Part shown: piece after piece, positions 3,142 to 31,717 of the stretch | Numbering within the stretch: the stretch's first letter is position 1 | Layout of the letters: each line of letters begins with the position of its first letter | Origin: a virus | Lineage: Duplodnaviria > Caudoviricetes | Virus record (IMG/VR): IMGVR_UViG_3300044712_000786 | Span: 128,001-192,000 of that record | Length of the DNA: 64,000 bases | Direction: 5' to 3' (one strand) | Translations under genes and position numbers: made by a program | The notes under the pieces: model-generated | What the model saw: the letters and a program-made list of their open reading frames with translations, nothing else | What the model was told of the DNA's origin: nothing | Database searches by the model: none

Positions 3142-3326
3142 GCTTCTATTGCCATTTCCATTTGATACTGATAGTAAGCTACTTCATTAACCGCCGACTG
3201 AATCAACTTTTTGTCATCTGTAGCTATTCCGCTCTTATAGTATCTGAAACTTAACAAATCTAGAGCATCCTGAGATATCTCTACGTTGATGTTTACCGAC
3301 TTTGTACGGGACGCATTTTTTTTCAT
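3138..3326 (-). CDS. small hypothetical protein (possibly ribbon-helix-helix)
   Basis: ORF track; beta-strand then helix pattern; start codon lies inside an ACAGC hairpin. Confidence 0.5.
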   Translation of the reverse strand: MKKNASRTKSVNINVEISQDALDLLSFRYYKSGIATDDKKLIQSAVNEVAYYQYQMEMAIEA

Positions 3327-3346
3327 TTATTGGCTGTTAGCGTCCC
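3305..3346 (-). ncRNA. stem-ACAGC(A/C)A hairpin element, dispersed copy
   Basis: GGGACGC-UAACAGCCAA-A-rich-AUGCGUCCC-GU. Confidence 0.65.
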
Positions 3347-3916: not shown

Positions 3917-4061
3917 AAATATATGCGCCTACGGAAGTCATGCCGACTACCACGCCATCCATTACGGTTTCCCTTTGGATGACTCCGTCTTTGTTTATTT
4001 CTCTAATTACTTTGCCCTTGCGATAGAGCGATACATCATCGAACATACCTAATTCTAGCAA
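3822..4061 (-). CDS. hypothetical protein
   Basis: ORF track; overlaps next ORF by ~95 nt. Confidence 0.5.
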   Translation of the reverse strand: MLELGMFDDVSLYRKGKVIREINKDGVIQRETVMDGVVVGMTSVGAYIYDPKEQKTEKPSWAEWFPFKSDSGVRVIVYA

Positions 4062-4076
4062 GGCTTATGAAAACTG

Positions 4077-4661
4077 TCAATAAAAAGTTCTCAACATTAA
4101 GATGACATCCCAAGCATCATCTATAGCTCTATGAGTATAATCGGGGGTGTATATCTTAGCCCTAGCCTTACATTCTCCCGTGCTGGGGACAGCGTAGTCA
4201 GTCTTGAAGTTCATAAACATTGGACCGGGGTCCAATATAGTATGTCTAAATCGACACATTTCCATGAAATGAGGCAATTTCTGTAGAAACTGCGCGTCAA
4301 ACCCCCCGAAGTTCTTTCCCGCTGCTGTATAAGGCAACTCTATATTATTGTTTTTAAGAAATAGCTTAAAATATTTAGCTACTTCGCCTTCCCTTAAGAC
4401 GGTGATTCCAGAAGGGGATACTAATTGACCGTTTTCATCCCTCTCGGCTTCAGCTATCTCTTTCAAAACCTCCGCATTCATTGCTAAAGCCGCAGGGGTT
4501 CCAAAGTAGTTATCCCTCCAAACCAAACAATGAAATTTAGGACATTCCTCTAAGGAAAGCTTCTTCTCAGTATCTTCTACAATCGCGCCAATTTCTAACA
4601 AGTTATGCTCTTGGGGGTTTAGTCCCGTCATTTCGCAATCAATACTAATGTAAATCATCAA
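4077..4661 (-). CDS. DEDDh 3'-5' exonuclease (oligoribonuclease-like)
   Basis: SIDCEMTGL, GKNFGGFD, HRAIDD motifs. Confidence 0.85.
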   Translation of the reverse strand: MMIYISIDCEMTGLNPQEHNLLEIGAIVEDTEKKLSLEECPKFHCLVWRDNYFGTPAALAMNAEVLKEIAEAERDENGQLVSPSGITVLREGEVAKYFKLFLKNNNIELPYTAAGKNFGGFDAQFLQKLPHFMEMCRFRHTILDPGPMFMNFKTDYAVPSTGECKARAKIYTPDYTHRAIDDAWDVILMLRTFY

Positions 4662-4920: not shown

Positions 4921-5919
4921 TTACTTCAAAACAAGAAGTTGCGTGCCAGCAACCAAATTTCGGTTGAGGCTAGTAGACTGGATAAAGACATGCCACTTGC
5001 CATGACTAGCAGGGTCTACTTGGATTTCGTAATCGGGCAGACCGAGCATATCTCGCGCATTAACGCCAGAATATACCTTCGCCGTTACTTTATCCTGAAT
5101 ACATACCTGTTTGTAAGCTTGAACCTTCTCGGGCTTAGTAATTTGGTAGTAAGCCGAACCTTTGACGTAAGGCTTTCCAGTCCAACTTTCTACGAAGCTC
5201 TTGATATCCTTCTTCTTACTAACAGGGAAAATCTCATATTGGTGAGTCTTTAGCTCATCCAAATTCCGTTTGACACTAGTTGTCGATAGGCTGCTAGCGT
5301 CAAGATTAAAAAGATTCTTTGTACTGCGAACTCCAGTGCTACGAGCCCTCATAAAGGAAGTCGTAACTGTAGTCATAACGTCACCGATATCGTTCATACC
5401 CTTGGCGGTAGTGTCCCAAGTCATTACATTACCGGCGGGGAACCCACAAGCTTTAGCTTGCTTAACTCCATATTCATTGGGGACCATTACGGACACGGTC
5501 CAATTATCCTTGAGTTGAGAAATCGCTTTCTTTAATTGAGGTTCCTTGTTCCGACTAGCATTCTCTTCGCCATCGGTAATAGCAATCAAAAGAAACGCAT
5601 GGTCTCCATAGAGTTGAGGCGTCTGCTCAAGGTCAGAGATTGCTTGCATCGTCCCATCGATAAGCTTGGTATTGCCATTAGTATAATAATGGTCTTTAAT
5701 CCTAGGGAGCCTCAATACATCCATATCGTATACTAGCGGCTCTACGCTGCTATTAAACAAATAAATTGAAACCCGTGTTTCTTGGTCAGTTTCTTTAGAG
5801 CTTTTGGCTAATTGAGCTACGTGAGTGTCAATGACTTTAATGGTTTCGTCCTTGATGCTGCTCATCGAACCGCTCGCATCTACAACCAAAGCTACGTGAT
5901 TGATAAGATTTTGAATCAT
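4921..5919 (-). CDS. von Willebrand factor A domain protein
   Basis: MIDAS DASGSM ... T ... ITDGEEN. Confidence 0.85.
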   Translation of the reverse strand: MIQNLINHVALVVDASGSMSSIKDETIKVIDTHVAQLAKSSKETDQETRVSIYLFNSSVEPLVYDMDVLRLPRIKDHYYTNGNTKLIDGTMQAISDLEQTPQLYGDHAFLLIAITDGEENASRNKEPQLKKAISQLKDNWTVSVMVPNEYGVKQAKACGFPAGNVMTWDTTAKGMNDIGDVMTTVTTSFMRARSTGVRSTKNLFNLDASSLSTTSVKRNLDELKTHQYEIFPVSKKKDIKSFVESWTGKPYVKGSAYYQITKPEKVQAYKQVCIQDKVTAKVYSGVNARDMLGLPDYEIQVDPASHGKWHVFIQSTSLNRNLVAGTQLLVLK

Positions 5920-16836: not shown

Positions 16837-16851
16837 ATAAAATTTAAAACG

Positions 16852-16958
16852 GGGATTTCACTAATGTTCCATTAAAAAGTGTGCTGCCAATTACACTACC
16901 GGGGCATAAGCGCCCCAGAGAGGACTCGAACCTCTACTTCCTTCATCATGTCTATCCC
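16852..16958 (-). ncRNA. YrlA-type Y-RNA-like RNA enclosing a circularly permuted tRNA domain
   Basis: Order T arm - acceptor 3' strand - GCUUAU loop - acceptor 5' strand - D arm, inside a GGGAUAGAC...AGUGAAAUCCCC stem. Confidence 0.7.
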
Positions 16959-16961
16959 TAT

Positions 16962-17735: not shown

Positions 17736-18176
17736 TTAAATTAACGTATCATTAAAAATATCTGCCGTTAGGTAATCTGCCGCTATATTGAACTTTCCTT
17801 TTCTCTTAGCCTTTTCGATACGTAGAGAAATACCTGACTTAAAATCTTTTGCAAAACTAGACTTAATATAGTAACAGTTTTGATTCTCTGGACAATAGAC
17901 GGCAATCGCATCTATATCACTAAAATCAATTGTTTTAGCTTTCCAACCTTGGGTATTAGTAGAAATACTTCGTAGTGGAATAACTATTGAACCATTCACC
18001 AATCCGACATATTTTACTGATAATCTCGCTAACTTTCCATTTGCACTAATAGCTATAAGGTCAAAAGGTAAATGTTCAGAAATTGGCAATGCTACTTTAA
18101 TGCCTTTACGGTCTAAATCAGCGATTACTTGAATTAATCCAGTATCGCCCTTCTCTTTAGTTATGGCCTTTGTCAT
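17736..18176 (-). CDS. PD-(D/E)XK endonuclease (PDDEXK_5-like, putative homing endonuclease)
   Basis: KGDTG...DL..KG..VALP..EHLPFDLI...SVKY. Confidence 0.75.
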   Translation of the reverse strand: MTKAITKEKGDTGLIQVIADLDRKGIKVALPISEHLPFDLIAISANGKLARLSVKYVGLVNGSIVIPLRSISTNTQGWKAKTIDFSDIDAIAVYCPENQNCYYIKSSFAKDFKSGISLRIEKAKRKGKFNIAADYLTADIFNDTLI

Positions 18177-25772: not shown

Positions 25773-25792
25773 AAATTAAAAAAATGAAAAAA

Positions 25793-25872
25793 AGAGCCAA
25801 GCCAGCACTATGAACGGCATAATAACTAACCAAAAAACAATTATTATTATTTTCTCGGATGTACTTGGCTCT
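25793..25872 (-). ncRNA. long hairpin RNA/terminator directly downstream of the Ro-like gene
   Basis: AGAGCCAAGU/GCUUGGCUCU 10-bp stem, ~60-nt AU-rich loop, 3' U tract. Confidence 0.55.
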
Positions 25873-25876
25873 ATGT

Positions 25877-27352
25877 TCACACAGTCACTTTGTTATAGCG
25901 TTCCTGACCAATAACTTCCATCATCGTGTCATAAGGGGTAAAGTTCTTACCCGATAGGACGGTTTTAAAGATAGAGGGAGAGAAACCACTAACTAAGGTT
26001 GCTCCGCGCTCATCCATTTCAACGGGCGATTGACCCGTATTAACTCTAGCGTCCAAGTTCCAAAATACAACATGAGGAACCTTGTATCCAGCCTTATCAA
26101 ACTTTTGCTTGATAGTCTCGAAATTACTCTTGCTATTATTGTCGCAAGCCTTATCGAACTGCATATCAGACAGGATATACAATACGTCAGGCATTTCCTT
26201 CTTAGGAACCTTATTCGCTACAGCAGCATTCAGAATCAAATCAAACGCAGCCTGTAAGTTAGTGTTTCCACCCCAAGGGGCACGCATTACGTTCAAAACC
26301 CGCTCAGTTAAAGAACTTCCTTGCACTTGCAATAAGCTAGGGCTAGCCTCGAAAGTAATGAAGTGATTCTTGAAGAAACCCTCAATTCTTTCTGCCATAT
26401 AGATGCCTAGACCAACACTAACCAACATCGGCTGTCCAGCCATAGAACCCGAAACGTCTACCAAGCAGAGACCATTGTGAGGATTCTCTTCTAAGTAGTT
26501 AGGCAAAGCCCTCCACTGCAACTCAACAGTAGGGTCTACTCCAGACTGAGCCTTTTGGACTAGCTCATGAGGATATAGCACAGACGCATTAATCTTAGCT
26601 TCGCCCGTAGCTACCTTACCAAGGTAAGCAGTATAGCCAATCGGGTCATGCTTGCCGAAAGCCTTTCGATAAATCATGCTGGCGCGAGAAGGAACAGACT
26701 CATAGTCAATCTCGTTCCAATTCTTGGAAGACATCTTTACTTCAACCACGTTAAGGTATTTCCTTAAGGAAGTAAGCATCTTGCGATAAGTCTTAGGAGA
26801 CATATCCAAAGCCTTCATAAGCTTCTTAGCAATAAGAGCCTCCGAAGAACCCTCAGAAGGCATCCACTTAGCCAACAGGGAAATAGCTTCCCCCTTCTTC
26901 ATAAGCTTCAAATCAGCTTTAACTTGCTTAACTAAGAACGAGGTAACTTCATCCTCTACCTTAGTGCCAAATAAGCAAAAAAGGTCATCAAAACGACCAA
27001 ATTCGGCTACATTAGCCAAGTTTCGAACAACAATTTTGGGATTGTTATTCGCCAACCAGCTTAGCATAGTGCGAAAAGCCTTGCGTTGTCCTTGACCCCC
27101 GCGAACATCACGGAAGTAAAAGGCAATCTTAGTAGCTAGCAACTTATCTTCGTTGAAAGCGTTGGAGAATAAGCTCAGAACATTAGCTTCGGGGGTATTT
27201 CGCAATGCGCCACCCAAGGCAAAGAAATCAACCAAGCTGCTCTTAGAAGTCGAAGGAGTGATAGCTCCATTTTCGGTTTGAGTCATAGTGTGAATCTTAG
27301 TAACGGTCTTAGGTGCCTTACTGTTCTTAATAGCTTTAATTAGTTTGCTCAT
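25877..27352 (-). CDS. DUF2828-type TROVE/Ro60-like protein with C-terminal vWA domain
   Basis: TENGA..LVDFF..., FYFRDVRGGQGQR, LLAKWMP, KINASVLYPHELV, MIDAS DVSGSM, ILSDMQFD, FWNL. Confidence 0.85.
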   Translation of the reverse strand: MSKLIKAIKNSKAPKTVTKIHTMTQTENGAITPSTSKSSLVDFFALGGALRNTPEANVLSLFSNAFNEDKLLATKIAFYFRDVRGGQGQRKAFRTMLSWLANNNPKIVVRNLANVAEFGRFDDLFCLFGTKVEDEVTSFLVKQVKADLKLMKKGEAISLLAKWMPSEGSSEALIAKKLMKALDMSPKTYRKMLTSLRKYLNVVEVKMSSKNWNEIDYESVPSRASMIYRKAFGKHDPIGYTAYLGKVATGEAKINASVLYPHELVQKAQSGVDPTVELQWRALPNYLEENPHNGLCLVDVSGSMAGQPMLVSVGLGIYMAERIEGFFKNHFITFEASPSLLQVQGSSLTERVLNVMRAPWGGNTNLQAAFDLILNAAVANKVPKKEMPDVLYILSDMQFDKACDNNSKSNFETIKQKFDKAGYKVPHVVFWNLDARVNTGQSPVEMDERGATLVSGFSPSIFKTVLSGKNFTPYDTMMEVIGQERYNKVTV

Positions 27353-27362
27353 ATTTTTATCC

Positions 27363-27423
27363 GAGACGCATTTTGTATGCGAGGTTTGTTAACCTTGTTT
27401 TTTTAGTTTGCTGTTAGCGTCTC
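27363..27423 (-). ncRNA. stem-ACAGCAA hairpin in the leader of the Ro-like gene
   Basis: GAGACGC-UAACAGCAA...AUGCGUCUC; ends 10 nt before the ATG. Confidence 0.75.
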
Positions 27424-28038
27424 ATTTTCAATACTAACAGGAATTTTTACTTTGTCAACGGCTTTGCTAGGCCAAAAATACGGTAAATCATCTTTTTCGC
27501 CCCAACCAAACTTTAGATACCAATTCTGGCCAATAGTAATTCCATTCTCACTACAGAAATGCTCTAGTTTCTTAACGTGCATCTGGTCTAGCTTGTTTTT
27601 ATAGGGATAGCCGTTTGCTTCAAGCCAATCGTTTATTTTTTTAATTTTTAATTTCGTCTTGATGGCAGCGCAAACAGAGTCGTAACGTCCCTTAAATAAA
27701 AGCTTACTACGGTGCGAAGAATGAAATCTATCGTCTCCCAACCACCAAGGGGCTATGCCCATCCAAGATTTAGAAACTTCGTTCTTGAAAAATTCAACAT
27801 ATTCTTGGACCTGAATACCCCTGCTAAGAGCTTCCTCCGCAATAGCTTTGCCATAAGAGACAAGAAAGCCTCCATGACCCCTCCACTGGACACAACAAGG
27901 ATGATTCTTCCAGCCCTCGGATTTACCCGTAATAGTGTAGAAAATTTCTTTAGCTTCAAAGACTTGTTTAGTCAGCCTTTGGTTATCGAGGCACTTCGCA
28001 GACTCCGTAAAAGATTCTAGGGGTAAAAACGTATTCAC
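27403..28038 (-). CDS. pyrimidine dimer DNA glycosylase family protein (DenV/MSMEG_6728-like)
   Basis: MNTFLP...CLDNQRL.KQ..E....GW.NHP...W; HRSKLLFK. Confidence 0.8.
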   Translation of the reverse strand: MNTFLPLESFTESAKCLDNQRLTKQVFEAKEIFYTITGKSEGWKNHPCCVQWRGHGGFLVSYGKAIAEEALSRGIQVQEYVEFFKNEVSKSWMGIAPWWLGDDRFHSSHRSKLLFKGRYDSVCAAIKTKLKIKKINDWLEANGYPYKNKLDQMHVKKLEHFCSENGITIGQNWYLKFGWGEKDDLPYFWPSKAVDKVKIPVSIENETLTAN

Positions 28039-28073: not shown

Positions 28074-28240
28074 GGATTACGGATGTCGAACATACTTACT
28101 TCTATAACGAATTCATTTCTTTTGACAAGAAAAGTATCTTCGTTTTTAACTCCAACGACTTCCCCCGCCCAATCCCCTTCGGGGTCAACAACTTTTACGA
28201 GTTTTCCCAACATGCGGGAATTCGCCTGATTTTTATTCAT
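28070..28240 (-). CDS. hypothetical protein (56 aa, not in ORF track)
   Basis: Manual translation MNKNQANSRMLGKLVKVVDPEGDWAGEVVGV... Confidence 0.5.
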   Translation of the reverse strand: MNKNQANSRMLGKLVKVVDPEGDWAGEVVGVKNEDTFLVKRNEFVIEVSMFDIRNP

Positions 28241-29550
28241 CAGACGTTTTTACACGCTTTTTCTGTATCTAGTAGCCAATTTTTATCTTCGGGAGTAGGT
28301 CCCTTAGAGGTTACTAAGACGGGCGTTTCCAAATAGTTAGCTATAAAACTAATTATATCTGTATTACCCAACTCAACATATTTGGGTTTACTACCATTCA
28401 TTCTCTCGGTAAGGTGGCTTTGATAAGCAATATTGGTAGTAGGAGACGAATGAAGCTCCCACTCAACCTTATCATAATAGCTGAGACATATCTTCCAACT
28501 CTTCTTTAATGAAAGCTTATCTAAATGAGAAATAGCCAAGTAGTCTATCCCCCCATTTACCTCCATACAGTAAGCTAGTAGATTTAAGTCCAGCCAACCG
28601 ACTCTAAATCCACCTTGAAACTCATTTTTCTTGTTAAAATCATCGGGCAAAATATCCGTAAGCTGTTCATCTTCAGTAACTAACGGACCAGCGCCATGCC
28701 GAGTTGTATAAGCCCTCGTAATTCCTATTGTTTTCTTAGGATATGTCCAATCGCATCCCTTCAAAATCTCTTCCGCATTCTTAGAGGTAACAGTAGTCCA
28801 AGTAGTATGAGGAAAGAACCCAAAGTTTTCGTCTATTCCTATCCCTTGTGCCGCTTCGAATATAGGATGTTCGGAAGTTTTGACTAACAAGCCTGACATT
28901 TCATCATCAAGCAAAACAACGCTATTGGCAACGGTTTTATAATTACTTATTAAATCCTCTAAAGACAACTTGAAAGTATTGAAATTCTTATCATTTTTAC
29001 TAACCTTAGAAGCTAGCTCGAACATCCTAGACCTAACTCCTATCAGCTTCTCCATTAGTAAAGTGGGACTCTTAATATCCTTGAACCTCAAAACGAGATT
29101 GGGGTTGCTAAGAAAGTCTTGCATAGTGGCACCAATACCCATGCCGCAAGAACCGTGTCTTCCATCCCCCCGACTATTCTCTAAAATCCTATTATAAGCT
29201 TTATGAAAAGGGGTTGTTATCAAAGCCTCTTCATGAATAAACATTCTCTTGAAGCAATCGGTAATACCCAATTCTTCTAGCTTTTGATTTTCTACCAACA
29301 AGCCAACTGGATTAATTAATACATGTTTTGAAAGCAGGGTCCTAGTTCCAGCTACTAAAGTCCCGCTTCCAAATTGAGAAAAAACATGCGTTTTACCATC
29401 TGATAAAACAACCCTATGAGCACATTGGCTTCCCCCACTATATCTAACTACTAAATTAGACTTGTATTTGCGGACTAGGGAATCTACGAAAGTTCCCTTG
29501 CCACAATCGCCAAATCCACAATCTACCGTTATAAAAGCACAATTAGCCAT
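28240..29550 (-). CDS. purA: adenylosuccinate synthetase-like protein (divergent PurA family)
   Basis: GFGDCGKG, VRYSGG, FEAAQG, TTWT, YTTRHGAGP, FRVGWLD; start moved to MANCAF. Confidence 0.8.
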   Translation of the reverse strand: MANCAFITVDCGFGDCGKGTFVDSLVRKYKSNLVVRYSGGSQCAHRVVLSDGKTHVFSQFGSGTLVAGTRTLLSKHVLINPVGLLVENQKLEELGITDCFKRMFIHEEALITTPFHKAYNRILENSRGDGRHGSCGMGIGATMQDFLSNPNLVLRFKDIKSPTLLMEKLIGVRSRMFELASKVSKNDKNFNTFKLSLEDLISNYKTVANSVVLLDDEMSGLLVKTSEHPIFEAAQGIGIDENFGFFPHTTWTTVTSKNAEEILKGCDWTYPKKTIGITRAYTTRHGAGPLVTEDEQLTDILPDDFNKKNEFQGGFRVGWLDLNLLAYCMEVNGGIDYLAISHLDKLSLKKSWKICLSYYDKVEWELHSSPTTNIAYQSHLTERMNGSKPKYVELGNTDIISFIANYLETPVLVTSKGPTPEDKNWLLDTEKACKNV

Positions 29551-29555
29551 ATTTT

Positions 29556-29591
29556 TAAAAAAGGGCGGGTCTCTTTCGAAACCCGCCCCCA
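29556..29591 (-). terminator. intrinsic terminator between vWA and purA-like genes
   Basis: GGGCGGGUUUC-GAAA-GAGACCCGCCC-UUUUUU. Confidence 0.75.
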
Positions 29592-29619
29592 CCAACATGC
29601 ACAACTAACCCAACCTCTA

Positions 29620-30628: not shown

Positions 30629-31717
30629 TTATTTTATTTCTAGTTTTCTAAATTTTCTATCACCGTAAAGAGCCGTTAAAATCTTCTGAAAATCCTGATA
30701 TAGTTCCCAAACATCTTGGCTTCTATGCTTATAACCTAAGAAACACGCCTTAAGCAATCCTCTTATAGCCCTCGGAACCGAATTAGGAACCTGTTTCGTG
30801 CTCGGGTCTCCCCCAAGCAGTGCTACCATACAAGTAGCAGCACTATACAAATCATAACCGAAATTTGCTACAAGTCCAGTCAAAATTTCAGGAGCGCAAT
30901 AGTCCTTATAATCAGGGCAGATGGCCCTTATTTTGTCCCCGACTTTGACGGAATGAGACCATCCAACTATAACACCATTATGAACTTCCGTATCGGTTAT
31001 ATCCCCCGACTTGATAATAATATGCGATGGATTTAATGCCCCGTGGACGACGCCAGCTTGATGAGCACAGAGCAAACCAGACAGAGTTCTATTAAACATC
31101 CAAGCAGCATCCCTAGGGTCAATCCCATTAGGGTAGTTGTCCAGAACTTTTTGTAAAGAGTAGTAGCCTTCATGCTTATCTAAAACGTTAACTTGTAATT
31201 TGACTTTATTTGAATCTTCTAATACAAATGAATCTCTTAGAACGGGAATATGTCTTAATACCTTTAAATCTTTAGAGGGCGACTCATTCCTTATCCAGTT
31301 TAGGATACTTGCCTCGTTGCGAAGCAAATCATTACTAGATGGGCTACGAGAAATTTTAACCAAAACCCCCTGCTTAGTATCAAAAATATCTGAAATATCC
31401 CCCGACTCGAAAAGAGTGGTAATGTTGTAAGTGCTTGTTTTGGAAGATATTACGACTTCTTCAGAAAGGACATTCTTATTTCCATAAGTACCATCCTTTA
31501 CTTTTTGTTCGGCTTGTTCTAAAAACTTACCCAAAAGAGTAAAAGCTTCATGCGCGAGATTTTTATCTGAGCATAAATCAGGATGGACTTTTTTAGCCCA
31601 ATCTCTATAAGCTACATCTAGCGACTCATTCTGTGGGACTTCCAATTCCCCAAATACATCCTCAGGGCAGGTTGCCTTTTGAAGGTCTTTGAATAATTTT
31701 TTGACTTTAGCAGACAC
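30629..31717 (-). CDS. J-domain plus kinase-like (probable pseudokinase) protein
   Basis: AKKVHPD; LRNEASIL; VVHGALNPSHI; YCAPE; DLYSAA. Confidence 0.8.
   Translation of the reverse strand: MSAKVKKLFKDLQKATCPEDVFGELEVPQNESLDVAYRDWAKKVHPDLCSDKNLAHEAFTLLGKFLEQAEQKVKDGTYGNKNVLSEEVVISSKTSTYNITTLFESGDISDIFDTKQGVLVKISRSPSSNDLLRNEASILNWIRNESPSKDLKVLRHIPVLRDSFVLEDSNKVKLQVNVLDKHEGYYSLQKVLDNYPNGIDPRDAAWMFNRTLSGLLCAHQAGVVHGALNPSHIIIKSGDITDTEVHNGVIVGWSHSVKVGDKIRAICPDYKDYCAPEILTGLVANFGYDLYSAATCMVALLGGDPSTKQVPNSVPRAIRGLLKACFLGYKHRSQDVWELYQDFQKILTALYGDRKFRKLEIK

Follow-up and report, generated by a model that had tools for sequence, protein, structure and literature searches.

A phage DUF2828 protein with a predicted Ro60-like fold is genomically linked to a family of small RNAs, its candidate partners

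Introduction

Ro60 and its Y RNAs form a classic, still poorly understood RNA-surveillance particle, in which Ro60 holds Y RNA on its outer surface and takes up single-stranded RNA ends in its central hole. To date, all tracing of the pairing has started from proteins recognised by the TROVE model: Ro60 or Rsr and Y RNAs are encoded side by side in Deinococcus (Yrn1) and in Salmonella and Mycobacterium (YrlA/YrlB; Chen et al. 2014, PMC4201824), the Ro60 of Thermus phage phiLo binds two adjacent Yrl RNAs, Yrl1 and Yrl2 (PMC12135203), and it was by way of TROVE-annotated proteins that YrlA, the canonical Y RNA of bacteria and phages, was tracked down (PMC4201824). Here we ask whether a DUF2828-type gene in a large phage genome, with a structured RNA on either side of it, encodes a further protein of the Ro60 kind and, if so, which RNA would be its partner.

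The phage genome is a 202,704-bp IMG/VR record with direct terminal repeats, and rhizosphere and soil metagenomes contain its DNA; no RNA run was listed as containing it. The window, by which we mean the whole stretch of DNA analysed, comprises 64,000 nucleotides (bases 128001–192000 of the genome). Its first 23 kb hold a large tRNA array on the minus strand, in which ARAGORN identified 16 tRNA genes and Rfam a few more, and the DUF2828 gene with its adjacent hairpin, hp5, lies just upstream of this array in the direction of transcription. When the locus was compared by megablast with 50,697 phage records, nothing matched.

Results

A predicted Ro60-type ring in a separate sequence family

The DUF2828-type gene named in the original prediction is real. 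It is an open reading frame on the minus strand (25877..27352) encoding 491 amino acids, in which DUF2828, a TROVE-like helical ring, is combined with DUF7788, a vWA domain with a MIDAS. Both domains scored far above their curated Pfam cut-offs (DUF2828, PF11443: 152.9 bits, cut-off 29, E = 1.5e-44; DUF7788, PF25043: 171.7 bits, cut-off 27, E = 1.8e-50), and on these profile matches we assign the protein to the DUF2828/DUF7788 family. It also matched PHROG 850, ‘RNA-binding protein’, over its full length (E = 7e-146), and the MIDAS residues of the vWA domain (D299-x-S301-x-S303, T364 and D396) were invariant in 121 homologues. Its closest protein relatives are at most 53% identical, and the family is present in 711 phage records, some annotated ‘Ro-like RNA binding protein’, with Listeria phages P100/A511, Felix-O1-like coliphages and cluster L mycobacteriophages among the carriers. 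More than 6,000 homologues are present in metagenomes.

The AF2 model of the protein (pLDDT 92, pTM 0.90) consists of a helical-repeat ring followed by a vWA domain, and structure comparison aligned it over its whole length to solved Ro60 structures. The best 13 PDB structure matches were all Ro60 or Rsr, including the Ro60 of Thermus phage phiLo, and the top structure matches among Swiss-Prot models were Ro60, p80 and TEP1. Sequence identity to Ro60 was 9–16%, and PDB sequence and profile searches did not return Ro60, which was found by structure comparison only. Pfam TROVE (PF05731) was absent among the matches of the protein at E ≤ 0.01, which separates it from Ro60/Rsr (TROVE plus vWA), and a six-frame search of the whole genome gave no TROVE match at E ≤ 1. 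Judged by its predicted structure, the protein is Ro60-like in fold and domain order, with the Ro-like ring that the claim of a Ro60/TROVE-like gene presupposed, yet it represents a separate sequence family, since neither Pfam TROVE nor any PDB chain matches it in sequence, and its homology to Ro60 rests on structure. Neither RtcB (PF01139) nor an Rnl2-type ligase (PF09414) was found in the genome, which distinguishes this phage from Ro60 systems with repair partners and leaves the suggestion of a link to RNA repair without support here.

Six handle RNAs, five of them within the tRNA array

Upstream of the gene, the original prediction had placed the fifth of a set of ACAGCAA hairpins. This hairpin, hp5 (27363..27423, minus strand), was confirmed and ends exactly 10 nt before the ATG, but the count was incomplete, as a sixth copy lies at 3308–3346. 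hp5 has a perfect 7-bp stem (GAGACGC/GCGUCUC) with UAACAGCAA directly after the 5′ arm and an A-rich loop of 47 nt that contains an inner hairpin, and its folding was more stable than that of all shuffled sequences (z = −4.1; 0/200 shuffles as stable). We refer to RNAs with this 7-bp helix and adjoining ACAGCAA as handle RNAs.

Four handle RNAs, detected by a script and by covariance models, form a tandem array on the minus strand (15026..15269) within the tRNA array: hp1 (15213–15269), hp2 (15151–15203), hp3 (15093–15142) and hp4 (15026–15084). They measure 50–59 nt and share 7-bp stems, UAACAGCAA or CACAGCAA, and a CUGUU tail, with short conserved spacers between the units and unrelated loops; a divergent tRNA-Trp-like gene lies immediately next to hp4. 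The sixth copy, hp6 (3308..3346, minus strand), is minimal, with the stem GGGACGC/GCGUCCC, UAACAGCCA and a 25-nt loop that includes the motif, and scored 60.6 bits with model R1. The script and two covariance models agreed on a genomic total of exactly six, each on the minus strand and five of them inside the tRNA array at 10–24 kb from the gene; the positional part of the proposed link to tRNAs is thereby borne out. The lowest score among the six was that of hp5 (R1: 43.3 bits, E = 8.5e-8; R2: 41.8 bits, E = 2e-7), which carries GGAU after the 3′ arm where the family has UGUU.

All stem positions paired in the six copies (100%), the stem sequences differ, and compensatory changes were present in five of the seven pairs, although this pairing count is partly circular in that the copies were chosen partly for having a stem; the tests in other phages described below are not circular. 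Bare ACAGCAA was not enriched in the window (10 found versus 6.6 expected), and it is the stem and motif together, not the bare 7-mer, that are non-random. Four DNA runs that we mapped contributed short same-strain fragments with one coding A>G difference, which did not bear on the stems.

A putative sigma-70-like promoter, recognised by consensus only (27431..27458, minus strand; TTGACA-16 nt-TAGTAT with an extended −10 TG, 10/12 consensus matches), precedes hp5 and predicts a transcription start at ~27423–27425, the first base of the hp5 stem. Because of this placement of +1, hp5 may serve both as the 5′ leader of the gene’s own mRNA and as a partner RNA. The upstream Pyr_excise open reading frame (27403..28038), which encodes a pyrimidine-dimer glycosylase domain, shares its final 7 codons with the 5′ arm and motif of hp5. 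Position alone is compatible with both a partner RNA and a cis-regulatory leader, and a hairpin that runs from the predicted +1 to 10 nt short of the ATG is what would be expected if the handles were cis-acting elements of the DUF2828 mRNA, either an autoregulatory operator or a ligand-sensing leader, and hp5 were simply 5′ UTR.

The handle RNA family accompanies the gene across diverse phages

We searched 81 IMG/VR loci centred on homologues with 40–50% identity using model R1, which was built from the six copies of this genome only. There were 179 matches, 176 on the gene strand, and in nearly all of these unrelated contigs the motif lay beside the gene. Most matches were at −600 to 0 of the gene, commonly in tandem runs of two to four, and some were just after the gene. 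Plain ACAGCAA on the gene strand was concentrated in the three upstream 300-nt bins (113, 47 and 28, 188 in total), compared to 0–14 in other bins and a total of 1 on the opposite strand of the same three bins. Strict handles, defined by the exact 7-mer and six paired positions since a one-mismatch pattern gave ~125 background matches per strand, numbered 204 on the gene strand versus 16 on the other, and 163 of them, distributed over 64/81 loci, were within 900 nt upstream. Five phage genomes that are complete or nearly so (1.31 Mb in total) gave 15 matches, of which 12 were at most 3 kb from the gene.

The reverse search gave a consistent picture. One handle variant with its complementary arm was searched in all viral contigs and found in 59 stretches, versus ~1 expected by chance; the DUF2828 gene was present in 41 of these and on the motif strand in 40 of the 41, and in the gene-less remainder the motif was mostly at the edge of the short stretch examined. 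The exact tandem-spacer pattern had 0 matches in viral contigs. The co-occurrence of motif and gene, which had been put forward as a check of the original prediction, hence holds across very diverse phages, and the motif was not found widely without the gene.

In a set of 55 copies drawn from diverse phages, stem positions were paired in 99.5% of cases, with G-U pairs occurring, and compensatory changes were observed in all 7 pairs (109 double changes versus 24 in shuffles). The 55-copy alignment was fitted to the model, and controls with slid partners dropped to 31–53% paired. Covariation and G-U pairs fit an RNA from the gene strand rather than a DNA repeat.

Handle RNAs were also identified in cultured phages. 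Listeria phage P100 has three copies just upstream of gp165, ending in CUGU, and one upstream copy each was present in Enterococcus phage EF5 and Campylobacter phage NCTC12673. In mycobacteriophage Aegeus, the gene annotated ‘Ro-like RNA binding protein’ is followed by three copies and then by a canonical terminator; these copies overlap an annotated small ORF. A single copy lies ~500 nt downstream in each of the Felix-O1-like coliphages garuso and Bas63, in the spacer between tRNA-Met and tRNA-Asn, and the T4-like phages Ci1 and Aeh1, which have the gene, showed no handle within ~3 kb.

These distributions bear on whether the handles act in cis. Copies within 600 nt upstream on the gene strand in most loci would suit such elements, as would the position of hp5. 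Against this, copies also occur downstream of the gene (the three in Aegeus, and those in loci L028, L013, L049 and L020) and remote from it (five of the six here, 10–24 kb away in the tRNA array, and three in genome G001), the loops of tandem units are unrelated, the spacing between hairpin and start codon in other phages is anywhere from ~20 to 110 nt, and the members of the nearest Rfam family are small RNAs that occur free and in abundance (PMC7919456). We therefore consider an exclusively cis-acting role unlikely. Autoregulation may occur, but we do not favour it as the principal function, because the position of the copies relative to the start codon varies and many copies lie outside leaders; trans-acting partner RNAs fit the variable distance and the downstream and remote copies better than a dedicated translational operator.

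A more general explanation is that the hairpins are processing or stability signals of long tRNA-mRNA transcripts, for example for RNase entry or blocking, or else DNA repeats, with no specific tie to the Ro60-like protein. The five copies in the tRNA array, the abutment of hp4 on a tRNA-like element and the tandem units with their short conserved spacers could be read in this way. Yet the association with the gene persists across phages of Listeria, Mycobacterium, Campylobacter and E. coli hosts, most whole-genome matches (the 12/15 above) are beside the gene even though these genomes are rich in tRNAs, a single-stranded 7-mer kept across host phyla is unexpected for host RNase sites, and the strict strand bias together with the G-U pairs favours RNA over a DNA repeat, which makes this explanation quite improbable.

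Because the RNA family adjoins the gene in very different phages, the handle RNA is probably the protein’s RNA partner. A second, sequence-divergent family with a predicted Ro60 fold, carried by more than 700 sequenced phages, travels with its own easily recognised class of small RNA, which is missing from genome annotations and is not in Rfam as a phage or bacterial family. Annotation of the gene was already known, and the RNA family and its pairing with the protein appear to be undescribed in the searchable literature: open-access papers on DUF2828, on phage ACAGCAA and on Ro-like proteins with tRNA did not describe the RNA family, and published function reports on DUF2828-type proteins did not describe handle RNAs.

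Other candidate partner RNAs at the locus

The terminal-stem RNA that had been noticed right after the stop codon is likewise a real element (25786..25872, minus strand; structure at 25793–25872, then U7). It begins 5 nt past the stop codon, the next gene lies 20 nt beyond it, and it is composed of a 10-bp long-range stem (AGAGCCAAGU/GCUUGGCUCU) with two sub-hairpins. The whole element folds stably (z = −4.1; 0/200 shuffles as stable), and its 3′ half alone folds weakly (z = −1.6). The stem has 5–6 G-C pairs followed by U7, as in a G+C stem with a U run, but encloses 60 nt rather than the 3–8-nt loop of a compact hairpin, and a terminator scan did not list it. As a stable stem with U7 in the interval between the stop codon and the next gene, the element is most simply explained as a terminator of the gene; this is also its most likely identity, although it would be an atypical one. 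We found no paralogue in the genome, no relative in ~140 fetched loci other than low-complexity BLAST matches, and no Rfam family match.

Y_RNA (RF00019) and YrlA (RF02553) matched neither hp5 nor the downstream element at E ≤ 10, and neither matched hp1–hp4. For the downstream element, the term ‘Y-like scaffold’ used in the original prediction therefore has no support beyond general shape: the element exists, but it stands outside the family, without relatives and without a match to any Y RNA model. Separately, we considered whether it was a degenerate handle RNA and rejected this (best R2 score 3.4 bits with filters off).

The true partner could nevertheless be this downstream element, or a YrlA-like permuted-tRNA candidate at 16847–16960, instead of the ACAGCAA hairpin. 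The downstream element adjoins the gene and has a long 5′/3′ stem, a search of 181 nt with the Rfam YrlA model gave a full-length alignment to 16847–16960 that includes the T-arm, the D-arm and a closed acceptor (22.1 bits, E = 0.01), and the DUF2828 protein is the sole Ro-like protein of a genome without a canonical TROVE gene. The YrlA match is, however, far under the 69-bit threshold and not significant at genome scale, weak YrlA matches also appeared in 13/14 control genomes, and YrlA was unmatched in nine homologous loci at E ≤ 0.1, while the downstream element lacks relatives (140 loci and the genome) and Rfam matches and has the U7 of a terminator. We regard either element as a very doubtful substitute for the handle RNAs.

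The handle RNAs themselves share with functional Y RNAs a small size, paired 5′ and 3′ ends and a position beside a Ro60-type gene. They differ in matching neither the Y_RNA nor the YrlA model, in having no GNCGAA-type motif, in that their conserved part is a 7-bp stem with single-stranded ACAGCAA, and in being shorter, at about 40–90 nt.

Resemblance to dictyostelid Class I RNAs

No family in Rfam 15 reached its threshold on any of the six copies. The only aligning family was RF01414, dictyostelid Class I RNA, which aligned full length to hp1–hp4 (25.4–29.1 bits, E = 0.001–0.01 in a small search; the gathering value of 41.5 bits was not reached) and did not match hp5. Class I RNAs are abundant free small RNAs of ~60 nt in which the two ends pair in a short stem, the 5′ arm is followed by a conserved motif of 11 nt, and the interior varies (PMC7919456); they start with AAG, end with CUGU and have clustered genes (Kjellin et al. 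2021, PMC7919456), and they were concluded to be unique to dictyostelids (PMC7919456).

Phage handles and Class I RNAs have in common the terminal stem, a motif ending in ACAGCAA after the 5′ arm, a variable A-rich interior, a length of ~60 nt, an (A)AG start, a CUGU end and clustered genes. The described Class I features (6-bp stem, ...ACAGCAA, CUGU, about 42–65 nt) are all present in hp1–hp4; in hp5 the stem and motif are present and the tail is GGAU instead. Published Class I RNAs differ from the phage handles in being eukaryotic, in having a DUSE promoter and in that their known direct binder is the RRM protein Rnp1A. Four proteins are reported to co-purify with one of them, DdR-21 (Avesson et al. 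2011).

We tentatively raise the possibility, which we hold to be less probable than its converse, that phage handles are of the same kind as Class I RNAs and perhaps homologous to them, with DUF2828-type proteins as the conserved partner. The two would then belong to an old second Ro/Y-type ribonucleoprotein of phages, bacteria, giant viruses and eukaryotes, which in phages displays look-alikes of tRNA anticodon arms, possibly as decoys or adaptors against tRNA-directed defences. If so, Class I RNAs would be a branch of a widespread ribonucleoprotein and not a dictyostelid invention tied to multicellularity. Should the likeness reflect common ancestry or a shared partner, the published view of dictyostelid uniqueness would need revision.

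A proposed ribonucleoprotein at the interface with tRNA biology

On balance, we think it probable that the Ro60-type DUF2828 protein and the handle RNAs form a Ro/Y-like ribonucleoprotein, with hp5 as one of six partner RNAs. By analogy with Ro60 and Y RNA, the protein would recognise the invariant handle, that is the 7-bp helix and single-stranded UAACAGCAA, in RNAs that would be released from longer transcripts. The interior between the handle arms varies, and the variable loops, some with the shape of a tRNA anticodon arm, may engage other factors. The handle is a defined candidate binding element that experimentalists can mutate, and phage tRNA arrays become tied to the proposed particle.

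The loops point to tRNA biology in particular. Of the 55 handle loops, 17 include a hairpin whose own 7-nt loop has the form of an anticodon loop, with U at position 2 and a purine at 6, versus 3.4 expected from shuffles. Recurrent examples include CUGUUAA and, in hp4, CUGAUAA, in which the anticodon positions read GUU (Asn) or GAU (Ile); the same sequences form the anticodon loops of bacterial tRNA-Asn(GUU) and tRNA-Ile(GAU).

Additional evidence comes from Escherichia phage JohannRWettstein (Bas63), whose gp130 is a homologue of the protein studied here (38% identity over 471 aa, E = 2e-105), encoded, like the gene of the window, next to a tRNA array. Expression of gp130 by itself, whether from a plasmid or from T7, is enough to counter the ppl defence (PMC11482910). 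Together, the anticodon-form loops, the position in the tRNA array and this anti-defence phenotype suggest that the protein and handles could act at the interface of phage tRNAs and host tRNA-directed enzymes, in tRNA biology or in counter-defence. The gp130 phenotype was obtained with the protein alone, a difference from the arrangement proposed for the window’s protein, and the phage RNAs may be dispensable for the anti-ppl phenotype. Handle RNAs nevertheless offer a concrete candidate for the working partner of this anti-defence protein. The authors of the Bas63 study guessed that some annotated tRNAs might be Y RNAs (PMC11482910); the Bas63 handle RNA, AGACCGU-UUACAGCAAU...ACGGUCU, is located in an unannotated spacer rather than in an annotated tRNA.

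tRNA-like features of handle RNAs and the tRNA array

Among the 55 handle RNAs from diverse phages in alignment A3, which share a 7-bp stem closing both ends and an ACAGCAA motif after its 5′ arm, about a third carried an anticodon-arm look-alike in the loop (17 of 55 vs. 3.4 in shuffles), defined as a stem of 4–7 bp capped by a 7-nt loop whose second position is U and whose sixth is a purine. The loop CUGUUAA was recurrent, occurring at four loci, and in the phage genome under study a look-alike was found in the tandem hairpin hp4 (UUCAU-CUGAUAA-AUGAA; window 15026–15084). At L027, a locus fetched from another virus, one handle RNA (2843–2907) runs on into T-arm-like sequence, CAGGUUCGAGUCCUG, and could represent a handle joined to a tRNA-like body.

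The last tandem hairpin in the window is directly followed by a tRNA-Trp(CCA)-like gene (14946–15020, minus strand), which is divergent and encodes its own CCA end. It was called by ARAGORN at a relaxed threshold only and not with default settings, and was unmatched by the Rfam tRNA model at E ≤ 1. Within the same tRNA array, a YrlA-like element flanked by two tRNA-Arg genes (16847–16960, minus strand) aligned over its full length to Rfam YrlA (RF02553), including the T-arm GAGGUUCGAGUCCUC, a loop-closed acceptor-like stem, the D-arm and the terminal stem. Its score was 22.1 bits vs. a threshold of 69, which did not reach significance at genome-wide scale, and weak YrlA matches were found in 13 of 14 control genomes.

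Protein genes in the array and around the Ro-like gene

The tRNA array is interrupted by protein genes, all on the minus strand. Their products are a second vWA protein, TerF-like and unrelated to the Ro-like protein (4921–5919), an exonuclease of the RNase T type (4077–4661), a calcineurin-like phosphoesterase (9037–9660) and a PD-(D/E)XK endonuclease (17736–18176). Upstream of the Ro-like gene, also on the minus strand, lie genes for a protein that carries a pyrimidine-dimer glycosylase domain at its N terminus (27403–28038), an adenylosuccinate synthetase (28240–29604) and a weak protein-kinase/DnaJ-like protein (30629–31717).

Handle RNAs in other viral contigs

The handle variant used to search viral contigs was also present in two labelled as giant-virus MAGs, IMGVR GVMAG-M-3300017963-53 (L090, 124–713) and GVMAG-M-3300023174-155 (L136). 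In one of them the handle occurs as three copies in tandem, and the 11-kb stretch examined contains no DUF2828 gene; the other has a single copy, with a DUF2828 gene 1.8 kb away on the opposite strand. Mycobacterium phage Aegeus has three tandem handle RNAs (L086, 3942–4143), flanked by the Ro-like gene on one side and a canonical terminator on the other. These overlap gp61 (3945–4088), which is annotated as a 'hypothetical protein' and may be a mis-called ORF.
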